A DNA stretch of 64,000 nucleotides from Planctomycetota bacterium. Lineage in GTDB: Bacteria; Planctomycetota; PUPC01; DSUN01. The translations under genes were made by a program, and so were the position numbers. Below are positions 3,166 to 62,583 of the stretch, in pieces. A model generated the notes under the pieces. That model ran no database searches. It was not told the origin of the DNA and saw only the letters and a program-made list of their open reading frames with translations. The stretch spans positions 578,405 through 642,404 of the forward strand of contig JBGLNR010000001.1 in NCBI GenBank assembly GCA_041320515.1. The letters are read 5' to 3'. Numbering within the stretch: position 1 is the first letter of the stretch; each line of letters begins with the position of its first letter.

Positions 3166-3291
3166 GCAAGGCTCCTGTTCCTCCCGTGGGGCCGCGTACC
3201 AGGGCGCATATGGTGTCAGTTTCGCCGCGTCTTGTCAAAGGCCCTCCCTGTCTTGACACGCGCTCGGCAGAGGACTACCATCGAGAAGGCT

Positions 3292-3366
3292 CGTAGTGCG
3301 GGCTTCAGCCCGTATCTTCGCCGCCGCATCGGCAGCCCAAGATACGGCCTGAAGGCCGCACTACAA
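3292..3366. repeat. REP-like composite hairpin (GTAGTGCGGGCTTCAGCCCGTATCT … AGATACGGCCTGAAGGCCGCACTAC)
   Basis: Near-perfect 25-nt inverted arms, each with an internal GGGCT-TCA-AGCCC mini-palindrome. Member of a family seen at five sites in this window. Confidence 0.85.
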
Positions 3367-3408
3367 GCTCTGGCGTTCCGCTCCCGAGGAACTGGTAAAG
3401 GGTTCGAC

Positions 3409-5658
3409 ATGAGACTCAGCGTGTTGCTGGCGGCAGTTCTGCTGGCGAGCAGGGCCTGGGCGGCGGGGCTGCCCGTATCGGTGCCCATCGAGGGGATCAA
3501 GGAGCTGAACGCCGGGGCGTGGGGCGGCCCGGAGTTGGACGGGCAGCCCGCCTATCGCCTGGCGCTCAAGGGCAAGGATGCCTGGGTGCGCATTCCCGCC
3601 TGGTGGGGCGAGGGCGCTCGGCCACCACAGGGCGCACGCTATGTCGTCGAGGTCACGTTCAAGGATGTTGTGGAAGCCCCGATCGTTGCCGAGTCGTTCG
3701 GGGCGTTGGGCAGTTACTACGGCCGAAGCGAACTGCACCGCTTCGGGGGTGCGAACGACGGGCAGTGGAAGGTGGCTCAGGTGCCCGTGAGCTGGAACCT
3801 GCTGGTTGCGCCCAAGGGCACGAGGTCCGCCGAGCTTGCCTTCCGCGCGCCCGCCGACCTGCCCATTTCGCAGCTTGTCATCCGCGAGGCAAAGCTGCCC
3901 GAGGACCAGGCGCGTTACGAGGCCGAATCGCGGGCGTGGGTGGCGAAGGCCCAGGCGGCCAAGGCCACGGAGGCGGGGCAGATGAACGCCGACGAGACGG
4001 CCGTGGCGCCCGAGGGATACGTAGGGAGGGCCTTGGTGCCCTACGTCCGCGCCTACTACGACCGCATCTACCCGAACAGCGCGCCGCGCAAGGCGGAGGT
4101 CAGGGCGACCATCCACGTGCGCTTGGCCCGAAACGAGTTCGAGCCAGGCACCTTCGCCGTCTATGCCCAGGAGGATCTCAAGGGCGTGGACTTCGCGGTG
4201 TCGGAGCTGACTGGGCCGACGGGCACGCTGGCGTGCGAGATTCGCCGCCACACCATCGAGTACGCTCTGGAGCCGAAGGGGAAGGGCCTGGCCTGGGCGC
4301 CGCAGCGGCTCTGGCATGCATTCCCCGCGAGTATCAAGAAGGGGCAGTCGGCCTGGTTCTGGATAACCGTTCGCACCCTCGGCGAGGCGAGCCAGCCGGG
4401 GAAGTACCGCGGCAAAGTCATGATCGCCGCCGGGCAACAGACAGCCGAGTTGCCCATTCAGGTCGAGGTGCTGCCCATCACGCTCCTGACGATGGACGAG
4501 GCGGGGCTGCGGATGGGCGGCTGCGTGACCGGCCTCGCGACGGCAGGCGAGATGGCGACGATGCGCGAGCACAACCACAACATGGTCAACCTCTGGTTCG
4601 CAGGCGTCCAGCCCGAGATGAAGAAGGAGGGCGACCGAATCGTCCTCGACTTCCATTACCTCGACGACTGGATGAAGCTGGCCAGGGAGAACGGCCAGGG
4701 CGCCATCGTGTGGTTCCTCGGCGGCAACCCGAACGGCTTCCCGATGACCCTCTCGATGGAGCGCGACCTCTACGCCCTCGCCTGCGGCCCGCGAGACGAC
4801 TTCCTCAAGAAGGCCGGCTCCCAGGAGTTCCGCGGCAAGGTGCTGCCCGAGGTGCGGCCCCACTATGCACAGTGGCTCAAAGACGTGGTTGCGCACGCCA
4901 AGGAGAAGGGCTGGCCCGAGCTGATCTTCACCCCCTTCGACGAGCCGGCGAAGTGGGCCTATCCCGAGCCGCGGGCCGACAAGAGCTACAAGTTCGCCAT
5001 CGGCTGCGGCCCGTGGATTCGCGACCACTTCAAGGACGCTTGCGCCCTCATCCACGAGGCCGCGCCCGGCAGCAAGGTCTACGTCTCGATGCACCGCAAC
5101 TTCCACCGCAAGGTCCACGGGACCGACGGACGGGTCGGAGAGATCTTCATCCCCGACTGCGATGTCATCTGCACGAACGCGATTGACGAGGACAACGAAC
5201 TGGGGGACAAGGTGCGGAGCGCGGGCAAGGCATTCTGGCAGTACTCGGGCACCCGCAGCCGCCGATTCGGATTCGGCTTCTACTTCGGTGCCTGGGACTC
5301 CCGCGGCTCGCTCTGCTGGGCCTACAACTGGGGGCGGCGGTTCGACATCACGGAAGGCTCGAACTGGCAGTATGCCTGGTGCTCCCCCTTCGACACCATC
5401 CTCACGCCCGACTACGAGGAACTGCGCGAGGCCTGGGACGACCGCCGCTACATCGAGACCGCCAAGGCCGCGGCCAAGGCCGCGGGCAAGGACATCTCCG
5501 ACCTCCTCGCCCAGATACGCGCCGAGACCCTCGCCAACCAGGGCACGGGAGGCCGCGACCTCGTCAACGACTTCTGGGAGGAGGGCCGCCAGGCGAACAA
5601 GATGGACCAGTGGCGCGATCTGTTGGCGAAGAAGATCATTGAGCTGGCCCGCAGGTAG
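3409..5658 (+). CDS. secreted TIM-barrel protein, putative glycoside hydrolase (DUF4091-like)
   Basis: The long six-frame ORF (2773..5658) is antisense to the VOC gene at its 5' end. The true start is the ATG at 3409, followed by a signal peptide (MRLSVLLAAVLLASRAWAAG). The remainder is globular with many W/Y and a (beta/alpha)8-like pattern. Function is assigned by resemblance only. Confidence 0.6.
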   Translation: MRLSVLLAAVLLASRAWAAGLPVSVPIEGIKELNAGAWGGPELDGQPAYRLALKGKDAWVRIPAWWGEGARPPQGARYVVEVTFKDVVEAPIVAESFGALGSYYGRSELHRFGGANDGQWKVAQVPVSWNLLVAPKGTRSAELAFRAPADLPISQLVIREAKLPEDQARYEAESRAWVAKAQAAKATEAGQMNADETAVAPEGYVGRALVPYVRAYYDRIYPNSAPRKAEVRATIHVRLARNEFEPGTFAVYAQEDLKGVDFAVSELTGPTGTLACEIRRHTIEYALEPKGKGLAWAPQRLWHAFPASIKKGQSAWFWITVRTLGEASQPGKYRGKVMIAAGQQTAELPIQVEVLPITLLTMDEAGLRMGGCVTGLATAGEMATMREHNHNMVNLWFAGVQPEMKKEGDRIVLDFHYLDDWMKLARENGQGAIVWFLGGNPNGFPMTLSMERDLYALACGPRDDFLKKAGSQEFRGKVLPEVRPHYAQWLKDVVAHAKEKGWPELIFTPFDEPAKWAYPEPRADKSYKFAIGCGPWIRDHFKDACALIHEAAPGSKVYVSMHRNFHRKVHGTDGRVGEIFIPDCDVICTNAIDEDNELGDKVRSAGKAFWQYSGTRSRRFGFGFYFGAWDSRGSLCWAYNWGRRFDITEGSNWQYAWCSPFDTILTPDYEELREAWDDRRYIETAKAAAKAAGKDISDLLAQIRAETLANQGTGGRDLVNDFWEEGRQANKMDQWRDLLAKKIIELARR

Positions 5659-6363: not shown

Positions 6364-7180
6364 TTCCGTCTTCGACCAGAAGCTCCACGCACCGCTTCCC
6401 GAGATTCTCGTCGAGCTTCAGCTTCATACCTTCGACTCCGCGAGGGGAATCTCGACGTATCGCTCCCGCGACATCTCCGCTCCATAGGTTATGTGGCCCC
6501 GCGGGCGTTCATCCTCCTATCATGCTAAGTCGGGCCCCGGTCCAGAAACTTTAGCACTTTTCTTCACAAAACCCATGACCATGCACGCTAAATACGTACA
6601 GAGGGAGAGGGGTCCAAACACCCCCCTCCCTTTCAGGGAGGGGCAGGGGGAGGGTGGGGGCCCGCCGCCGCCCCACGGCGCCAGGAATAGGGGCCATACT
6701 CGAGGAGGGCTCGGCGGCCCCACGTGGCCGCGCCCTGCCCTGCACGGCCTGAAGGCCGCACTCCAAACAGAGTCCATCGCCCCTGCTCGCTGAAGCCCAT
6801 TCAGCTTCTGTCGCGGATTCCTGCAGCGACAAGCGTCCCGCTTGCCGAAGGGCCGAGGAAAGCCGCAGAAGGCAGTCGGCCAGGCTGAAGTGGCCGAGTA
6901 AGCGGCCGAGCCGGGCGGCGACGCGTGCCAGCTTCCTCACGACAACGCCCCCGAGGCCGAACCTGCCCCGACGCCCTCGCGCGAACGCGGCGAAGTCAAC
7001 GGGCGCGAGGAACCCCCAATGTGACAGGCACGATGCTGCGGACGCCCTGCTCCCGCTCCAGTCGCGGAAAGCCCCGGGTCCGCCACGCCCAAGCCGTGCT
7101 TGGCCGCGTCTTCCGCAACGGCAACTAATCCCGTATGATGGCCCCCGAACTGACCACAGGCACCCCCAGGACGGCATTCC

Positions 7181-9738: not shown

Positions 9739-11142
9739 TCACTTCTTGCGCTCCGGGCCTTTCTTCTTGGGCGGCGGGGCGGGGCTGTCGAAGAGGGGAG
9801 GGACAAGTTCCTTGTCCCAGGCCGCGTAGGCGGCGACGAGGCGCTTGAGGATGTCGGGGTGGGCATCGGCGACGTTGGCGGTCTCGCGCGGGTCGGCCTC
9901 CAGGTCGTAGAGCATGGGGTCGCCGAGGCCGGTCTTGACGATCTTCCAGCGGCCCTCGCGGACGGCGTAGCTTGTGCCGCCGCCGGTGCGCCAGAAGAGG
10001 CGCTCGTGGGGCGGCGTCGCCCTTTCGCCCGTCACGTGCGGGATGAGATTCACCCCGTCAATCTTGCGGTCGGCGGGCAGTTGCGCGCCAGCCACGGCCG
10101 ACGCAGTGGCGAAGAGGTCGAGGGAGATGACGGGGTGCGCGTAGTCCTTGCCCTCTGGCAGGCGGCCGCGCCACTGGGCGGCGAAGGGGACGCGGATGCC
10201 GCCCTCGTGGAGCGCGCCCTTGCCGCCGCGGAGGATGCCGTTCGTGGCGCCGTAGCGGGTGGGGCCGCCGTTGTCGCTCAGGAAGACGACGAGGGTGTCG
10301 TTCTCCAGCTTGACGTCGCGGAGCGTGGCCAGGAGCAGGCCGACCCCATCGTCCAGCGCGCTCATCATGGCGGCATAGGCGCGGCGGCTGGGGTCCTCGA
10401 TCCTGGCGAAGCGGGCGAGATACTTGTCGGGGGCCTCGAGCGGCGTGTGGGGCGCGTTGTAGGCGAGGTAGAGGAAGAACGGCTTGGCCGCGTGGCGGCG
10501 CACGAAGGCCGCGGCCTCGCGCGAAAAGGCGTCCGTCAGATACTCGGTCTCCACTACGGGCTGGCCGTTGCGCTCGATGGGGATGAGGTATTCGCGGGTC
10601 TCGCCGGCGGGATTGGCCTTGAAGTAGTTGTGCCCGCCGCCGACGAAGCCGAACTGCTCGTCGAAGCCGCGCTTGAGGGGGTGGAACTCGGGCGCGCCGC
10701 CGAGGTGCCACTTGCCCACGATGCCCGTCACGTAGCCCGCCTGCTTGAGCACTTGGGGCAGGGTCGTCTCGGTGAGGGGCAGGCCAGCCTTGCGGTCGGT
10801 GGCGTCGTAGCGTGGGTTGTTCTCGTGCCCGAAGCGCTGCTGGTAGCGTCCCGTCAGCAGGCCGGCCCGCGTGGGGCTGCAGAAGGGGTGCGACACCAAG
10901 CCGTTGGTGAAGCGCACCCCGTGCTTGGCGATGGAGTCGAGGTTTGGGGTCGGGATGTCCTCGCAGCCCATGAACCCCACGTCGCCCGAGCCCAGGTCGT
11001 CGGCGACGATGAAGATGATGTTGGGCTTGCGCCCCGCGGCCGCCTCGGCGCCCCATGCCGCCCCGACTCGGGAGGCGAGGAGTCCCGCGAGCCCTCCAAT
11101 GGCCGCCTCCACGAACTCGCGGCGGGTGCGACTCGGACTCAT
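9739..11142 (-). CDS. arylsulfatase (Cys-type sulfatase family) with Tat-like signal
   Basis: 467-aa ORF. 'IIFIVADDLG…CSPTRAGLLTGR' carries the C-x-P-x-R formylglycine motif. 'GKWHLG' is also present. The N-terminus (SRTRREFVEAAIGGLAG) looks like a twin-arginine signal. AAGGAGG Shine-Dalgarno lies 7 nt before the ATG. Confidence 0.9.
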   Translation of the reverse strand: MSPSRTRREFVEAAIGGLAGLLASRVGAAWGAEAAAGRKPNIIFIVADDLGSGDVGFMGCEDIPTPNLDSIAKHGVRFTNGLVSHPFCSPTRAGLLTGRYQQRFGHENNPRYDATDRKAGLPLTETTLPQVLKQAGYVTGIVGKWHLGGAPEFHPLKRGFDEQFGFVGGGHNYFKANPAGETREYLIPIERNGQPVVETEYLTDAFSREAAAFVRRHAAKPFFLYLAYNAPHTPLEAPDKYLARFARIEDPSRRAYAAMMSALDDGVGLLLATLRDVKLENDTLVVFLSDNGGPTRYGATNGILRGGKGALHEGGIRVPFAAQWRGRLPEGKDYAHPVISLDLFATASAVAGAQLPADRKIDGVNLIPHVTGERATPPHERLFWRTGGGTSYAVREGRWKIVKTGLGDPMLYDLEADPRETANVADAHPDILKRLVAAYAAWDKELVPPLFDSPAPPPKKKGPERKK

Positions 11143-11170
11143 CGTTCACCTCCTTGGCGCGCACCTGTCT

Positions 11171-11228
11171 GTAGTGCGGCCTTCAGGCCGTATCCTCGCG
11201 AGACGGGCTAAAGCCCGCACTACAAACT
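11171..11228. repeat. REP-like hairpin (GTAGTGCGGCCTTCAGGCCGTATCC … GGGCTAAAGCCCGCACTAC)
   Basis: Same family as 3292..3366. Lies between the stop of the lipoprotein gene and the start of the sulfatase gene, both on the minus strand. Confidence 0.8.
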
Positions 11229-12528: not shown

Positions 12529-14097
12529 ATGAGAGCCTACCACGATCTCCACGCGTACTTCGGCGACCTGCACAGCCATTGCGGCATCTCCTACGGCCAC
12601 GGCTCGCTCGGCGAGGCCCTGGCCAACGCCCGCGAGCAGCTCGACTTCTGCTCCGTGACCGGCCACGCCCACTGGCCCGACATGCCGCCGCCCGACCCGC
12701 GCATCCAGCACATCCTGGACTTCCACCACGAGGGCTTCGCAAAGCTCAAGGCCGGCTGGCCCGCCGTGCTGGAGACGCTCCGCCGGGCCAACGAGGAGGG
12801 GCGCTTCGTCGTCTTCCCCAGCTTCGAGATTCACTTCTGCGCCACGGGGGACCGCACGGTGCTCTACCGCGACCTGGGGGGCGACATCCTCTACGCGGAC
12901 GATCTGGCTGACCTGCACCGGCGCCTCCGCGACCTGGCAGCGCAGGGCAAGGCCGCCATCGCCTTCCCCCACCACCTCGGCTACCGCCGCGGCGCAAGGG
13001 GCATCAACTGGGACGCCTTCGACCCCGCGTTCGCGCCCATCGTCGAGATCGTCTCGATGCACGGCTGCTCGGAGGGGAGCGAGAACCCGCGGCCCTTCCT
13101 GCACTCGATGGGGCCGTCGGACTGGGAGAGCACGGTGCAGTTCGGCCTCGGGCAGGGCCACGTGTTCGGGGTCGTGGGCGGCACCGACCACCACAGCGCC
13201 CATCCCGGCAGCTACGGCCACGGCCGGGCCGCCCTGTGGGCCACGGGCCTCACCCGCGAGGCCCTATGGGAGGCGCTGATGGCGCGGCGCACCTGCGCCC
13301 TGACGGGCGACCGCATCGCGGTCCAGTTCGCCCTCAACGACGCGCCGATGGGGGCCGTCGTGCCGCTCGCGCGGCAGCGGCACATCGAGATTCGGGCCGA
13401 GGCCGGCGGGGCGATTGACTGCCTGGACCTCGTGAAGAACAACCGCCTGCTCCGCCGGTGGTCCGAGTGCGACGTGCCGCAGGCCGCGCAGGGGTCACAT
13501 CTTCATTTGGCACTTGGCGGCGAAGTGCGAAATGAAGATGTGACCCCGCTGCGCACGAAGCTCTTCCTCGAGGTCGGCTGGGGCGAGAAGCGGAGGGAGA
13601 CGGCGTGGGACGTGTCCCTCGGCATCTCCGAGGGGCGCATCCTGGCCGTCGAGCCGCGCTTCCGGGGGCAGGAGGTCGTCTCCCCCATCGAGAAGGAGGC
13701 CGGCTCGTCCTCCCGCTACTACACCTCGCACTGGGAGCGCGACGGCGAGCGGGCCGTGCGCTTCACCACGCGAAGCATCGGGCACCCGAACAACGTGACG
13801 AACGCGGCGCAGGGCATGTGCCTGGAGGTCGAGATGCCGCTGGCTGGCGGGGTCGAGGCGGTCCTCAACGGCCAGCGGGCCGCCGTCCCGTTGCGGCGCC
13901 TCGTCGCGGGAGCCAAGAGCGGCAACCTGGGCGGCATAGACTCGCCCGCCTGGCGCCTCCACCGCGCCCCGCTGCCGTGGGAGTTCGGCTGGGAGGTGTC
14001 GCTCGACGACGCGGACGACGCCCCCGCCTTCTACTACGCCCGCGTGCGGCAGAAGAGCGACCAGTGGGCCTGGGCCTCCCCCATCTTCGTGCGGTGA
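12529..14097 (+). CDS. DUF3604/PHP-like metal-dependent phosphoesterase-fold protein
   Basis: 522-aa ORF. 'FGDLHSHCGISYGHG' and a later 'GGTDHHSAHPGSYG' follow the PHP/DUF3604 histidine-cluster pattern. Divergently transcribed from 11232..12407. Confidence 0.7.
   Translation: MRAYHDLHAYFGDLHSHCGISYGHGSLGEALANAREQLDFCSVTGHAHWPDMPPPDPRIQHILDFHHEGFAKLKAGWPAVLETLRRANEEGRFVVFPSFEIHFCATGDRTVLYRDLGGDILYADDLADLHRRLRDLAAQGKAAIAFPHHLGYRRGARGINWDAFDPAFAPIVEIVSMHGCSEGSENPRPFLHSMGPSDWESTVQFGLGQGHVFGVVGGTDHHSAHPGSYGHGRAALWATGLTREALWEALMARRTCALTGDRIAVQFALNDAPMGAVVPLARQRHIEIRAEAGGAIDCLDLVKNNRLLRRWSECDVPQAAQGSHLHLALGGEVRNEDVTPLRTKLFLEVGWGEKRRETAWDVSLGISEGRILAVEPRFRGQEVVSPIEKEAGSSSRYYTSHWERDGERAVRFTTRSIGHPNNVTNAAQGMCLEVEMPLAGGVEAVLNGQRAAVPLRRLVAGAKSGNLGGIDSPAWRLHRAPLPWEFGWEVSLDDADDAPAFYYARVRQKSDQWAWASPIFVR
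13491..13547. repeat. 57-bp near-perfect palindrome embedded in frame in the DUF3604 CDS (25-bp arms, 1 mismatch, with a nested 6-bp inner stem)
   Basis: GGGGTCACATCTTCATTTGGCACTT-GGCGGCG-AAGTGCGAAATGAAGATGTGACCCC. The segment is locally AT-richer than the gene. It encodes 'GSHLHLALGGEVRNEDVTP'. 57 nt equals 19 codons. Confidence 0.85.
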
Positions 14098-26247: not shown

Positions 26248-26437
26248 GAACCCCGGCCCCGGCTCCCATCACCGGCCCAGCCGTGAGTTCACCCGCAGGC
26301 TGCCGCTAATGGCTAATGAAGATCTGGCCCCAATGGCGCCTAGAAGCCGCCGAGGCGTTTGAGTTCCTGGGGCTGTTCCTTGGGCTCCTGCGGGGGCGTG
26401 GACTTGGCCATGGCAGTTCCTCCTCGGGGTTTGTAGT

Positions 26438-26490
26438 GCGGGCTTCAGCCCGTAGGGGATACGGCCTGAGGGCCGCACTACAAGCACCAT
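26438..26490. repeat. REP-like hairpin (GTAGTGCGGGCTTCAGCCCGTAGGGGATACGGCCTGAGGGCCGCACTAC)
   Basis: Compact form of the REP family: about a 23-bp stem with a 4-nt loop. Confidence 0.85.
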
Positions 26491-27229: not shown

Positions 27230-28915
27230 ATGCCCAAGCTGACGATTGACAACCGCCCGGTCGAGGTCCCCCCCGGCGCCACCGTGCTCGATGCCGCGCG
27301 CGCGCTCGGCATCGAGATCCCCACCCTCTGCCACCTCGACGGCTTCGAGCATTCCACCTCGTGCTTCGTCTGCGTCGTCAAGCTCAAGGGCAAACCCGGC
27401 CTCGTGCCCTCGTGCGCCACCGTCGCCACCGAGGGCATGGAGGTCGAGAGCGAGAGCGACGAGGTCCGCGACGCCCGGAAGATGGCCCTCGAGCTGCTCC
27501 TGAGCGACCACCTGGGCGACTGCATCGGCCCCTGCCACGCCGTGTGCCCCGCGCACATGAACATCCCGCTCATGATCCGCCAGATCGCCGCGGGCCGCCT
27601 CCGCGACGCGGTCGTCACGGTCAAGGAACACATCCCGCTGCCGTCGGTGCTCGGCCGCATCTGCCCGGCCCCGTGCGAGAAGGGCTGCCGCCGCGGCCAG
27701 CACGACGCGCCGCTCTCCATTTGCCTTCTGAAGCGGTTCGTCGGCGACGCCGACCTCGCCGCGCCCGAGCCGTGGTTGCCCGAACGCAAAGCCAGCACGG
27801 GCAAGCGCGTGGCCATCATCGGCGCTGGGCCGGCCGGCCTCTCCGCCGCCTGGTATCTGCTCCAGGACGGCCACGCGGTGACGCTCCACGATGACCACGA
27901 GAAGCCAGGCGGCATGCTCCAGTACGCCGTGCCGGAGGACAGGCTGCCGCGCGCCGCCCTCGACGCCGAGATCGCCCTCATCGCCCGCCTCGGGGCCGAG
28001 CTGCGCCTCGGCAAGCGGGTGGAGAGCGTCGCCGAGCTTCAGGGCGCCTTCGATGCCATTCTGGTCGCGGCGGGCGAGTTGCGGCCCGGCGACGCCGCCC
28101 GCCTCGGCCTGCCCGCCTCGAAGACTGGCGTCGAGGCCGACCGAGAGACCCTTGCCACGCCGATCGCCGGCGTCTTCGCCGCGGGCGGCGCCATCCGTTC
28201 CCAGAAGATGGCCGTCCGCTCCGTCGCCGAGGGCAAGTCCGCCGCCGCCTCGATTCATGCCTTTCTCTCCGCCTCTTGTCACGCGTCACGCGTCACGCGT
28301 CACGACTTCTCCATCCACATTGGGAAGTTGAGAGAAGGTGAGATGCCCGCCTTCCTCGCCGAGGCGAGCGCCGGCCCCCGCATCGAGCCTGCCGGCGGGG
28401 CGCCCGCCGGCTTCGCCGAGGCCGAGGCGCGCGAAGAGGCCCTCCGCTGCCTCCACTGCGACTGCCGCAAGCCCGGCGCGTGTCGCCTGCGCTGCTGGGC
28501 CGGCGCGCTCGACGCCAGCCCCAGCCGCTTCAAGGGCGAGCGCCGTTCCTTCGTCCAGCACCGGGCAGAGGCCAGAGGGCAGACGGCAGACGGCAGAGGG
28601 CAGAGGGCAGAGGGCAGTCCTGATGCCTTCGCGGCGTCGGCCGCGGCCGACGCTCTTCGTCTGCCATCTGTCATCTGCCATCTGCCGTCTGTGATCTACG
28701 AACCAGGCAAGTGCATCCGCTGCGGCCTGTGCATTCAGCTTTGCGCCAGGGCGAAGGAGGAGCTTGGCCTCACCTTTGTTGGCCGCGGCTTCGACGTCGT
28801 CGTGGGCGTGCCCTTCGAGCGCTCGCTCGCCGAGGGCCTGCGCAAAGTCGCTGCCGAGTGCGCCGCCGCCTGCCCCACCGGCGCCCTCGCCCTCCGCCAG
28901 GGCGAAGACCCCTGA
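27230..28915 (+). CDS. iron-sulfur flavoprotein oxidoreductase: N-terminal 2Fe-2S ferredoxin domain, GltD/NfnB-like FAD/NAD(P)-binding domain, C-terminal 4Fe-4S domain
   Basis: Plant-type 2Fe-2S motif (…CHLDGFEHSTSCFVCVV…SC…). 'CPAPCEKGC' 4Fe-4S. 'VAIIGAGPAGLSAAWYL' dinucleotide fold. C-terminal 'CIRCGLCIQLC'. A low-complexity insert is encoded by heptamer repeats. Confidence 0.8.
   Translation: MPKLTIDNRPVEVPPGATVLDAARALGIEIPTLCHLDGFEHSTSCFVCVVKLKGKPGLVPSCATVATEGMEVESESDEVRDARKMALELLLSDHLGDCIGPCHAVCPAHMNIPLMIRQIAAGRLRDAVVTVKEHIPLPSVLGRICPAPCEKGCRRGQHDAPLSICLLKRFVGDADLAAPEPWLPERKASTGKRVAIIGAGPAGLSAAWYLLQDGHAVTLHDDHEKPGGMLQYAVPEDRLPRAALDAEIALIARLGAELRLGKRVESVAELQGAFDAILVAAGELRPGDAARLGLPASKTGVEADRETLATPIAGVFAAGGAIRSQKMAVRSVAEGKSAAASIHAFLSASCHASRVTRHDFSIHIGKLREGEMPAFLAEASAGPRIEPAGGAPAGFAEAEAREEALRCLHCDCRKPGACRLRCWAGALDASPSRFKGERRSFVQHRAEARGQTADGRGQRAEGSPDAFAASAAADALRLPSVICHLPSVIYEPGKCIRCGLCIQLCARAKEELGLTFVGRGFDVVVGVPFERSLAEGLRKVAAECAAACPTGALALRQGEDP
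28573..28697. repeat. in-frame heptamer tandem repeats (CAGAGGG/CAGACGG x6) followed about 40 nt later by their inverted complement (CATCTGC/CCGTCTG x5)
   Basis: Read directly. Encodes 'RGQTADGRGQRAEG…LRLPSVICHLPSVI'. A (TCACGCG)x4 run lies in the same gene at 28277..28306. Confidence 0.8.
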
Positions 28916-31726: not shown

Positions 31727-32812
31727 ATGAGTTCAGACAAAGCAGTACTCCTGCTGGCAGACGGCACGGCGTTCGACGGGTTGGTCTTCGCCACGGCCGG
31801 CGAAGCCGTGGGCGAACTCGTGCTCTACACGGGCGTCGTCGGCTACCAGGAGGTGGTCACCAACCCCTCCTATCGCGGCGCCCTGGTCAACTTCACCTAC
31901 CCCATCATCGGCAGCTACGGCGTGAACGACGAGGACAACGAGTCGTCGGCCGTCCACGCCCGCGGCGTCGTCATCCGCGACTACAGCAGCATCGTGTCGA
32001 ACTTCCGCGCGACCGGCACGTTCGAGGACCTGTTGCGGAAGGCCGGCGTGGTCGGCATCCGCGAGATTGACACTCGCGCCGTGGCCGTGCACCTGCGCGA
32101 GCACGGCGAGATGTGCGCGATGATCGCCCCCGCCGACGCCGACCGCAAGGCGCTCGCCGAAAGACTCAAGTCCACGCCCTCACCCTTGGGCACCGATCTG
32201 GTGGCACAGGCCTCCGGCCTGTGGGGCACAGGCAAGATGCCTGTGCCACCGGCGGAGGCGAAGCATCGCGTCGCGGTCGTGGACCTGGGTGTCACCCGCA
32301 GCTTGCTCGCGCAACTGGCCCAGCTCGGCTGCGCGGTGGATGTTGTGGCCGCGACGGCGCCAGCGGCGGACATTCTGGCGGCCAAGCCCGACGGCGTGGT
32401 GCTGGCCGGCGGACCGGGCGACCCGCGGGTCCTCGGCTATGCCGTAGAAACCGTCCGCGCGCTCCTCGGCAAGCTCCCCATTCTGGGCATCGGCCTCGGG
32501 CACCAGGTCCTCGCCCTTGCTCTCGGCTGCAAGGTGCGGCGGATGAAGCTCGGCCACCGCGGCGTGAACTACCCCGTGCGCGACCTCCTGGCCAATCACT
32601 GCGACATCACCGTGCAGCACCACAGCTTCGTGGTGGACGAGGCGGCCGTGCCCGCCGCCGCCGAGGTCACCCACACGAACGTCAACGACCAGACCATCGA
32701 GGGCATCCGCGCCAAGGCCGCGCCCGCCGCGGGCGTGCAATTCCACCCGACGCCCGACGAGCACGGGCGACCGAGCAAGATTCTCGAGAGTTTCCTCGAA
32801 GGCCAGCGATAG
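31727..32812 (+). CDS. carA: carbamoyl-phosphate synthase small (glutaminase) subunit
   Basis: Collinear with CarA (…VGYQEVVTNPSYRGALVNFTYPIIGSYGVN…, class-I GATase C-terminal half). An alternative start lies 2 codons upstream. Confidence 0.9.
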   Translation: MSSDKAVLLLADGTAFDGLVFATAGEAVGELVLYTGVVGYQEVVTNPSYRGALVNFTYPIIGSYGVNDEDNESSAVHARGVVIRDYSSIVSNFRATGTFEDLLRKAGVVGIREIDTRAVAVHLREHGEMCAMIAPADADRKALAERLKSTPSPLGTDLVAQASGLWGTGKMPVPPAEAKHRVAVVDLGVTRSLLAQLAQLGCAVDVVAATAPAADILAAKPDGVVLAGGPGDPRVLGYAVETVRALLGKLPILGIGLGHQVLALALGCKVRRMKLGHRGVNYPVRDLLANHCDITVQHHSFVVDEAAVPAAAEVTHTNVNDQTIEGIRAKAAPAAGVQFHPTPDEHGRPSKILESFLEGQR

Positions 32813-36914: not shown

Positions 36915-36989
36915 GGGAGAGTTCGTAGTGCGAGCTTCAGCCCGTATTGGGAGCCCAGGATACGGCCTGAAGGCCGCACTACGAACTTA
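36915..36989. repeat. REP-like hairpin (GTAGTGCGAGCTTCAGCCCGTAT … ATACGGCCTGAAGGCCGCACTAC)
   Basis: Same family as 3292..3366. Lies just 3' of the stop of the giant gene on the minus strand. Confidence 0.85.
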
Positions 36990-49030: not shown

Positions 49031-49499
49031 GCCAAGCGCCGCAGCGTTCAGAAACCGACAGGAACAGCCGCTGTCCTCTTCCGCACATTATGCCACGCGC
49101 CCGCGGCGGCGTCAACCGCGACCAGGGGTCTGGATATGGGGTCTGGTCTACATTCTACCCTCTGCGGGATCCGCCTGTCTTTGCGGCTGTGGCGGCGGCG
49201 GGGTCTGATCTGCACTCTACACTTTGCGGCATTTGCTTGTGGTTCTCGTCGGCATTCCCTTACCCCCATTCCCCTGTCGCGTTCGGCGGACGGGAGAGGA
49301 GGGACGGGGGAATGGCAGATGAGGGAAGCAGGTGTTCGGTGATCGGTGTTCGGTGTTGGGGGTACGGACTCACATCTCGTCCCGATGCTCCGCGTCGGGA
49401 CGGGGCGTCTTGGACGCTCCCGCGTCCTGCCTGCCTACGTCGGCGTGCAGGGATGGCAGCGGTCGCTGGAGCGTCCAGGGCGGCGCGTCCCCACGCGGG

Positions 49500-62491: not shown

Positions 62492-62526
62492 CACAGCTCC
62501 GGCGCCCGGCTACACTGCGGCAGTGG

Positions 62527-62583
62527 CACAGGCATCTTGCCTGTGGGCCCACAGGCTGGAAGCCTGTGCCACCAGAGGGGTAA
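62527..62583 (+). terminator. nested inverted-repeat structure (TGGCACAGGC … CCTGTGGgccCACAGG … GCCTGTGCCA) between modC and the glycosyltransferase gene
   Basis: Outer 10-bp and inner 7-bp perfect stems are read directly. No U-tract follows. Confidence 0.45.

Follow-up and report, generated by a model that had tools for sequence, protein, structure and literature searches.

A 64,000-nt stretch of a Planctomycetota contig (hereafter, the window) contains a gene into which a 57-nt, near-perfect palindrome is built without loss of the reading frame, raising the question of where such a sequence came from and how it persists within a coding region. The sequence-only reading of this stretch had likened the palindrome to an in-frame palindromic mobile element or a transposon excision footprint, and had added that it could form an mRNA hairpin regulating translation. 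Our analysis favors the first of these: the palindrome is very probably a mobile, non-autonomous hairpin element that survives in frame.

The palindrome was confirmed by recomputing its arms and its fold, and its letters (GGGGTCACATCTTCATTTGGCACTTGGCGGCGAAGTGCGAAATGAAGATGTGACCCC) are exactly those that had been quoted (Table 1). An inverted-repeat search returned arms of 28 nt that are 93% complementary and lie 1 nt apart. The predicted fold leads from an 18-bp stem through a G·G mismatch (13509/13529) and a 6-bp stem (13510–13515 with 13523–13528) to a small apex. Folding energies were −42.9 kcal/mol as RNA (z = −10.3) and −26.1 kcal/mol as DNA (z = −10.1), with 0 of 200 shuffles as good in either case, and an 18-nt arm of this kind is expected by chance 0.01 times in the 64-kb window. 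The base composition also departs from that of the host gene, as the sequence-only reading had noticed, with a GC content of 54% in the palindrome and 72% in the rest of the gene. The label of a DUF3604 gene needed some qualification: the Pfam match of the host protein itself is marginal (20.8 bits against a cut-off of 20.4), but PF12228 is present in most of the best 120 of its 1,463 homologs (E ≤ 1e-10 among 8,000 candidates scored).

The first base of the palindrome is the third of a Gln codon; its 19 codons therefore span 13492–13548 and are translated as GSHLHLALGGEVRNEDVTP. It had been described as an insert of exactly 19 codons in frame, of which the in-frame part stands and the plain addition does not, since three codons are replaced. 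Because 57 nt take the place of 9 nt, the net gain relative to orthologs is 16 codons (48 nt). An AlphaFold2 model of the host protein built from 78 homologs (mean pLDDT 90.6, pTM 0.92) placed the insert between strands 306–312 and 341–351, where the two 10-residue blocks that bear it, 321–330 and 331–340, had mean pLDDT values of 53 and 63.

Table 1. Positions of the host gene, the palindromic element and its parts in the window
Feature	Position	Strand	Remarks
Host gene, DUF3604-like, 522 aa	12529..14097	+	Insert corresponds to residues 322–340
57-nt palindromic element	13491..13547	+	'Forward' polarity (G at element positions 19 and 39)
Left outer arm, GGGGTCACATCTTCATTT	13491..13508	+	First 16 nt are the terminus conserved across the family
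Right outer arm, AAATGAAGATGTGACCCC	13530..13547	+	Reverse complement of the left arm
Variable centre	13509..13529	+	G·G mismatch, inner 6-bp stem, apex GGCGGCG
Second site, empty in the window (CAGGGCAAGGCCGCCATC)	12943..12960	+	Filled in MAG SMAG_U14257 (L001 10417–10473)

An alignment with orthologs, which the sequence-only reading had proposed, identified the 19-residue segment as an insertion missing from orthologs. In this alignment of 14 protein sequences, 12 orthologs with alignment identities of 58–91% lacked the segment at the window's site, and one protein of 94% identity (P0001) carried it there in the same form as the host protein. One of the 12, from a Planctomycetota MAG (P0003; 91% identity in the alignment, and 86% by BLASTP, a figure that counts both inserts as gaps), was empty at the window's site and bore the same 19 residues after residue ~141. 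The gene of P0003 thus contains an identical 57-mer, roughly 550 nt upstream of the window's site. In the DNA, the 57-mers of the window and of two orthologous loci, L003 and L001, were identical at 57 of 57 nt; L003 and L007 hold the identical copy at the window's site, and L001 holds it at the different site in the same gene. The filled allele was 48 nt longer than the empty allele at both sites, and an empty ortholog was available for 14 site clusters. Judged from these alignments, the palindrome is an insertion and not ancestral sequence. In the model of the host protein, the alternative site around residue 141 lies between helix 126–138 and strand 143–147. Both insertion sites are loops between structural elements in the model, consistent with neutral tolerance.

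We then asked whether the palindrome has copies elsewhere. A protein-database search with a 57-aa concatenate of the peptide yielded only 5 candidates, and the breadth of the family was therefore gauged on DNA. Scans of two collections were performed with an exact pattern in which the arm cores were fixed and the centre was free, so that the sample comprises relatives with conserved arm cores and leaves those with diverged ends outside. Among GTDB genomes, one per species, the scan detected 85 loci, 7 of them resembling chance matches, and the metagenome scan detected at least 120 matching stretches. The motif GGGGT/ACCCC, which lies outside the search pattern, was present in nearly all family matches and missing from the chance matches, and it thereby serves as an internal control for homology. 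Additional, slightly diverged copies were picked up with an HMM made from the copies.

Copy numbers reached about 32 in SMAG_U14257 (DATKZY01) and about 38 in M_DeepCast_400m_m2_195 (VGYV01). They were smaller in MAGs labelled Coprothermobacterota, in unclassified MAGs, and in one MAG each labelled Phycisphaerae and Chloroflexota. Within SMAG_U14257 and M_DeepCast_400m_m2_195, the copies sit on different contigs with unrelated flanks. All share an architecture of 16-nt ends (GGGGTCACATCTTCAT and its complement) around a varying centre. Among the matches listed, total length ranged from 53 to 99 nt and local flank GC content from 35% to 73%. The plasmid, phage and viral-contig collections contained no match to the element, and a literal sequence search of papers retrieved unrelated primer matches only. 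In the 64-kb window itself there was no further copy of the 57-mer; a match to the arm at 26314 with 3 mismatches has no partner arm and was dismissed as a copy. The search for other copies suggested by the sequence-only reading thus came up empty in the remainder of the window and found dozens in related genomes.

The presence of a single copy in the window would suit an excision footprint, or a palindrome produced once by template switching and confined to this gene. Such an origin is almost certainly wrong, as 57-mers that are identical or nearly so, and that agree in their ends and length, were located at dozens of unrelated loci across several independent assemblies. The suggestion of a transposon excision footprint was accordingly not borne out: the 57 nt make up the whole conserved unit of a family with many copies and are no remnant. 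That of an in-frame palindromic mobile element proved correct, given the multiple copies and the presence/absence pattern among orthologs, and it is from presence and absence between genomes that we infer the mobility of the element.

To characterize the insertions, the flanks of every copy were mapped onto all other loci. The filled site was shared in 191 locus pairs, and 70 pairs had 9 nt instead of 57. This exchange of 57 for 9 nt was found at seven independent sites (0, 1, 7, 18, 45, 51 and 52). One site had 12 nt and a few others 5–13 nt, mostly with at least one poorly conserved flank (67–88% identity). Neither the comparison of filled and empty alleles nor the nested copies revealed direct repeats beside the element, that is, a target-site duplication, and no common motif or target consensus was evident in the replaced 9-mers of non-nested sites. 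Two other interpretations of the length difference were rejected. A clean 48-nt insertion fails, as removing any 48-nt block does not restore the empty sequence, and a 39-nt core with 9-bp duplications fails, as the termini are constant and not target-derived.

Nested copies exhibited the same replacement. At four loci (L171, L045, L057 and L127), a resident copy has lost 9 (or 10) nt and holds a complete 57-mer in the gap, and in three of the four the lost segment is resident positions 10–18 or its mirror, 40–48. By our reading of the junctions, one extra A or T that is missing from the empty allele is present at 5 of the 6 resolved ones. By a rough estimate, nested copies are far commoner than the tiny genome share of the element predicts, an excess to which relaxed selection within an already tolerated loop could add. 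In one MAG, two contigs have common flanks (L057 25–130 and L070 7845–7901) and are set apart by 40 nt belonging to a nested partial copy, suggesting either heterogeneity among strains or recombination of nested arms in one population.

We next examined where the copies lie relative to genes, judging genic status by ORF length and GC3 signature. Coding-like ORFs (GC1 ~0.7, GC2 ~0.5, GC3 ~0.9) contained 52 of the 73 unique high-GC 57-nt copies, and 59 of 83 (~71%) in an enlarged set. All genic copies were in phase 2, with the first base of the element at the third codon position. By our reading of the sequence, TGA is present in both of the other phases in either orientation, and these stops account for the single phase used in genes. 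Eight host ORFs were assigned by Pfam: FdhD, GH32, HUMPS + RraA, AMP-ligase, V/A-ATPase B, Old Yellow Enzyme, PPK1 and a FolC-like Mur ligase. The Pfam match runs across the insert in five of the eight (GH32, HUMPS/OMPdecase, ATP-synt_ab, PP_kinase and Mur_ligase_M), and the best Pfam stretch shown for the FdhD, AMP-ligase and Old Yellow Enzyme hosts does not span it. Three copies were located in a single stop-to-stop ORF of 1,304 codons. The coding strand of genic copies read the element in the 'forward' direction (L..R peptide) in 31 cases and in reverse (F..P) in 12 (p = 0.005), and the consensus of the 19-residue insert was G/V-S-H-L-H-L/F-A-x4-V-R/P-N-E-D-V-T-P.

This peptide could itself be what is selected, as a His-rich surface loop (SHLHLAHGGHV...) adding a metal-binding or interaction site; a role of this kind was once proposed for the peptides encoded by Rickettsia palindromic elements (RPEs). 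Translation always in one phase, common variants with 3–4 histidines and the location of the insert in a loop would agree with such a function. We nevertheless regard it as highly unlikely. The single phase is explained by the stops in the other two, conservation is seen at the nucleotide level with third codon positions included, the element is read in both orientations, with different residues resulting (L..R or F..P), and compensatory changes in the stem alter amino acids (G to V). Moreover, the lower-GC members of the family are non-coding: relatives of 53–68 nt with the same 16-nt ends were intergenic in 25 of 27 cases, and their lengths are mostly incompatible with frame preservation.

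Other inserts related to the element by sequence or by location were also observed. Longer high-GC relatives of 66–99 nt (L046 138–203, L064 2940–2997, L176 238–311, L179 812–885, and L009 275–371 / L126 817–915) have the same ends and other centres (e.g., ...TTTATCATTTATTC...GAATAAATGATAAATG...). Their lengths are not multiples of 3 under the 9-nt rule, and most lie outside ORFs. At L021 5329–5471, a different insert of 143 nt with CCCTCCC/GGGAGGG hairpins occupies the place where the ortholog L015 holds the 57-mer (3331–3387), and the peptide PLPRGEGRGEG, the same motif as in the L021 insert, is translated in the PPK1 host ORF of L067. Inserts of the L021 type may represent a second in-frame repeat family and the site an insertion hot spot.

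The copies were then compared for constraint on the hairpin. Across 46 distinct 57-mers, 96% of stem cells were paired, and changes on both sides were found in six stem pairs, amounting to 31 cells; 0 of 500 shuffles reached this cell count or the covariation score. These compensatory changes affected pairs 3/55 (G:C to T:A), 7/51 (A:T to G:C) and 24/34 (four pair types), as well as 16/42, 22/36 and 23/35. The mismatch at 19/39 (G·G, or C·C on the other strand) was kept in 57 of 66 copies, giving the element a defined polarity. In three of four orthologous copy pairs, the copy was more conserved than its flanks (0, 1 and 4 differences in 57 nt against a flank identity of 82–94%), and the fourth had decayed with 12 differences, a small sample of 4 independent pairs.

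A hairpin under such constraint might be kept for work at the RNA level, as an RNase III or RNA-binding site or a translational pause that tunes its hosts, with dispersal being secondary. The mRNA stem of 24–28 bp is very stable at the RNA folding energy given above, its pairing is maintained by compensatory changes, three of the four orthologous pairs of copies have changed less than the sequence beside them, and the 31:12 orientation bias on the coding strand (p = 0.005) is also in line with such a role. We consider it unlikely, since a maintained strong stem is equally expected of a DNA hairpin needed for mobility, and the compensatory changes consist of paired transversions, with G·U intermediates nearly absent, as for DNA pairing. 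The hosts are functionally unrelated and thus suggest no shared regulon; the lower-GC relatives lie between genes; and no Rfam family reached its gathering score, the only matches being to miRNA hairpins at ≤26.6 bits against thresholds of 67–90. As an RNA-level role also leaves the arrival of the copies unexplained, it would at best add to the explanation by a mobile element.

No transposase or other candidate enzyme was found beside the copies. When all ORFs of 120 aa or more from 90 loci were clustered, no neighbouring gene family recurred: the largest cluster includes an antisense ORF of L001 (2429–3185) whose + strand coordinates coincide with a gene matching PF00005 (ABC_tran; L001 17759–18514), and the remaining clusters group orthologs of the host gene and of the genes next to it. 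The 211 loci contained no long element bounded by the arms and no solo or far-apart arms, and inspection of the paired copies in L078 and L008 for a transposase was negative. At L001 4470–5460, a 150-aa Y1_Tnp gene (IS200/IS605-type, RAYT-like; 4885–5337) lies 5 kb from the L001 copy and is bordered on both sides by a 22-nt GTAG-ended repeat and a ~53-nt repeat, each in inverted copies. This arrangement in the MAG SMAG_U14257 resembles a RAYT accompanied by REPs of its own. As its flanking GTAG-type repeats are unrelated to the 57-mer, this gene was rejected as its partner, and a tblastn search with the L001 Y1 protein detected no second Y1 transposase near any other copy.

Several features of the 57-mer would fit a REPIN or REP doublet that depends for its movement on a RAYT, which is a Y1 HUH transposase, in the manner of the GTAG-tagged REPs of the same genome. 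Like REPINs, it is a short non-autonomous hairpin present in tens to hundreds of copies, with compensated stems and conserved ends around a freer centre (PMC3116915, PMC3733652). The compensatory changes within its hairpin are those of REPIN architecture (PMC3116915), and REPs are occasionally found inside ORFs (PMC3733652), although the 57-mer is mostly genic and not extragenic. The conserved stem mismatch confers polarity, as in single-strand transposase substrates, and a Y1_Tnp gene lies near the L001 copy. Against this, the ends of the 57-mer (GGGGTCAC.../...GTGACCCC) lack the GTAG or CGTC tag; by our reading of the sequence, its single arms have no internal palindrome and are not palindromic REP units. 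No RAYT was found beside the element, the repeat on either side of the L001 Y1_Tnp gene being a different, GTAG-ended one, and no Y1 gene adjoining any other copy. In addition, insertion of the IS200/IS605 type neither duplicates nor deletes target bases and would not yield the 9-nt replacement. We therefore judge a RAYT-moved REPIN to be quite improbable.

For the mobile hairpin element that we prefer, the following course can be envisaged. Very small non-autonomous DNA hairpins would have spread, and in a high-GC Planctomycetota lineage the length would have become fixed at 57 nt, which preserves the frame of a gene that gives up 9 nt in exchange. Copies landing in the stop-free phase and in tolerant protein loops would survive and be read as a 19-residue insert, and purifying selection would account for the bias in phase and toward loops. 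An enzyme acting in trans may recognize the conserved termini or the folded hairpin, and integration would comprise two cuts in the target 9 nt apart, with loss of the bases between. In DDE transposition, a 5′-staggered attack yields a target duplication. Here, the cut might be staggered opposite to that of ordinary DDE transposases, with removal of the flaps producing a deletion; alternatively, the same product would arise if a folded single strand filled a gap of 9 nt. Our confidence in any specific mechanism of integration is low, and the proposed chemistry is speculative because the 9-nt replacement is, to our knowledge, without precedent among bacterial MITEs. A bolder and somewhat doubtful possibility is a new transposition chemistry, in which hairpins of 50–100 nt with conserved 16-nt ends, found in several bacterial phyla, are integrated by a putative enzyme that removes exactly 9 nt of target and does not duplicate them, resident copies are preferentially re-targeted at a fixed position (nt 10–18 or the mirror 40–48), and one lineage has specialized to coding sequence.

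We further compared the 57-mer with known systems, of which RPEs are the closest in behaviour and REPINs the closest in architecture. The RPEs of Ogata et al. are ~100–150 bp long and restricted to Rickettsia (PMC10969869, PMC3733652). As described there, they are dispersed palindromes lying in frame in unrelated, apparently functional genes, to which they add peptide, as the 57-mer does (PMC10969869, PMC3733652). RPEs are not known to have a transposase, just as none was found for the 57-mer, and we found no 9-nt target replacement reported for them in these papers (PMC10969869, PMC3733652). On this basis, the likeness is claimed for behaviour only, and the 57-mer is set apart by host phylum, length and GC content: it measures 57 bp, inhabits free-living, high-GC Planctomycetota and has 16-nt termini in common with intergenic relatives in much lower-GC hosts.

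Typical MITEs are 70–400 bp long, are flanked by direct-repeat target duplications and derive from a recognizable IS (PMC10969869, PMC5896051). The 57-mer shares with MITEs such as Correia, RUP and Coxiella QMITE1/2 the terminal inverted repeats, the lack of its own coding capacity and the multiple copies, and some MITE insertions likewise give in-frame fusions (PMC10969869, PMC5896051). In contrast to classical MITEs, it is whole at 57 bp, shows a loss of 9 nt of target instead of a duplication, and has no parent IS that we found. As the 57-mer fits the definition of neither a REP/REPIN nor a classical MITE, we filed it as an in-frame coding palindromic repeat or hairpin MITE outside any named family.

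Until now, selfish palindromes lying in frame were regarded mainly as an oddity of Rickettsia and a handful of further reduced genomes. The same in-frame behaviour is now seen in free-living, high-GC Planctomycetota, where ~70% of copies lie in coding-like ORFs and the hosts include conserved enzymes such as V-ATPase B, polyphosphate kinase and a FolC-like Mur ligase. The copies constitute a natural data set of tolerated loop insertions of 16 residues net, and in these lineages they can mislead the annotation of genes, the alignment of orthologs and the assembly of metagenomes. The constant 9-nt target loss, together with termini conserved across distant hosts and no visible transposase, presents a mechanistic puzzle that could lead to a new DNA-integration enzyme.

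Several other repeats were observed in the window. A GTAG-tagged REP (GTAGTGCGGSCTTCAGSCCGTAT), unrelated in sequence to the 57-mer, is present as 9 units against 0 expected by chance: four inverted, REPIN-like doublets at 3289–3368, 11167–11227, 26426–26488 and 36920–36987, and a single unit at 6742–6764. One of the doublets is located just downstream of a sulfatase-like ORF ending at 11142. A second palindrome family (GGTGGCACAGGC...GCCTGTGCCACC, with arms of 24–26 nt) occurs at 32200–32250 and 62523–62572; a pattern with a fixed 6-nt centre missed both copies, indicating that the spacing differs between the two. Inverted heptamer arrays (CAGACGG / CAGAGGG, with the complement opposite) form 32-nt arms 48 nt apart at 28580–28691, and a GC-rich inverted repeat of 38 nt, 82% complementary with a 33-nt spacer, lies at 49390–49498.
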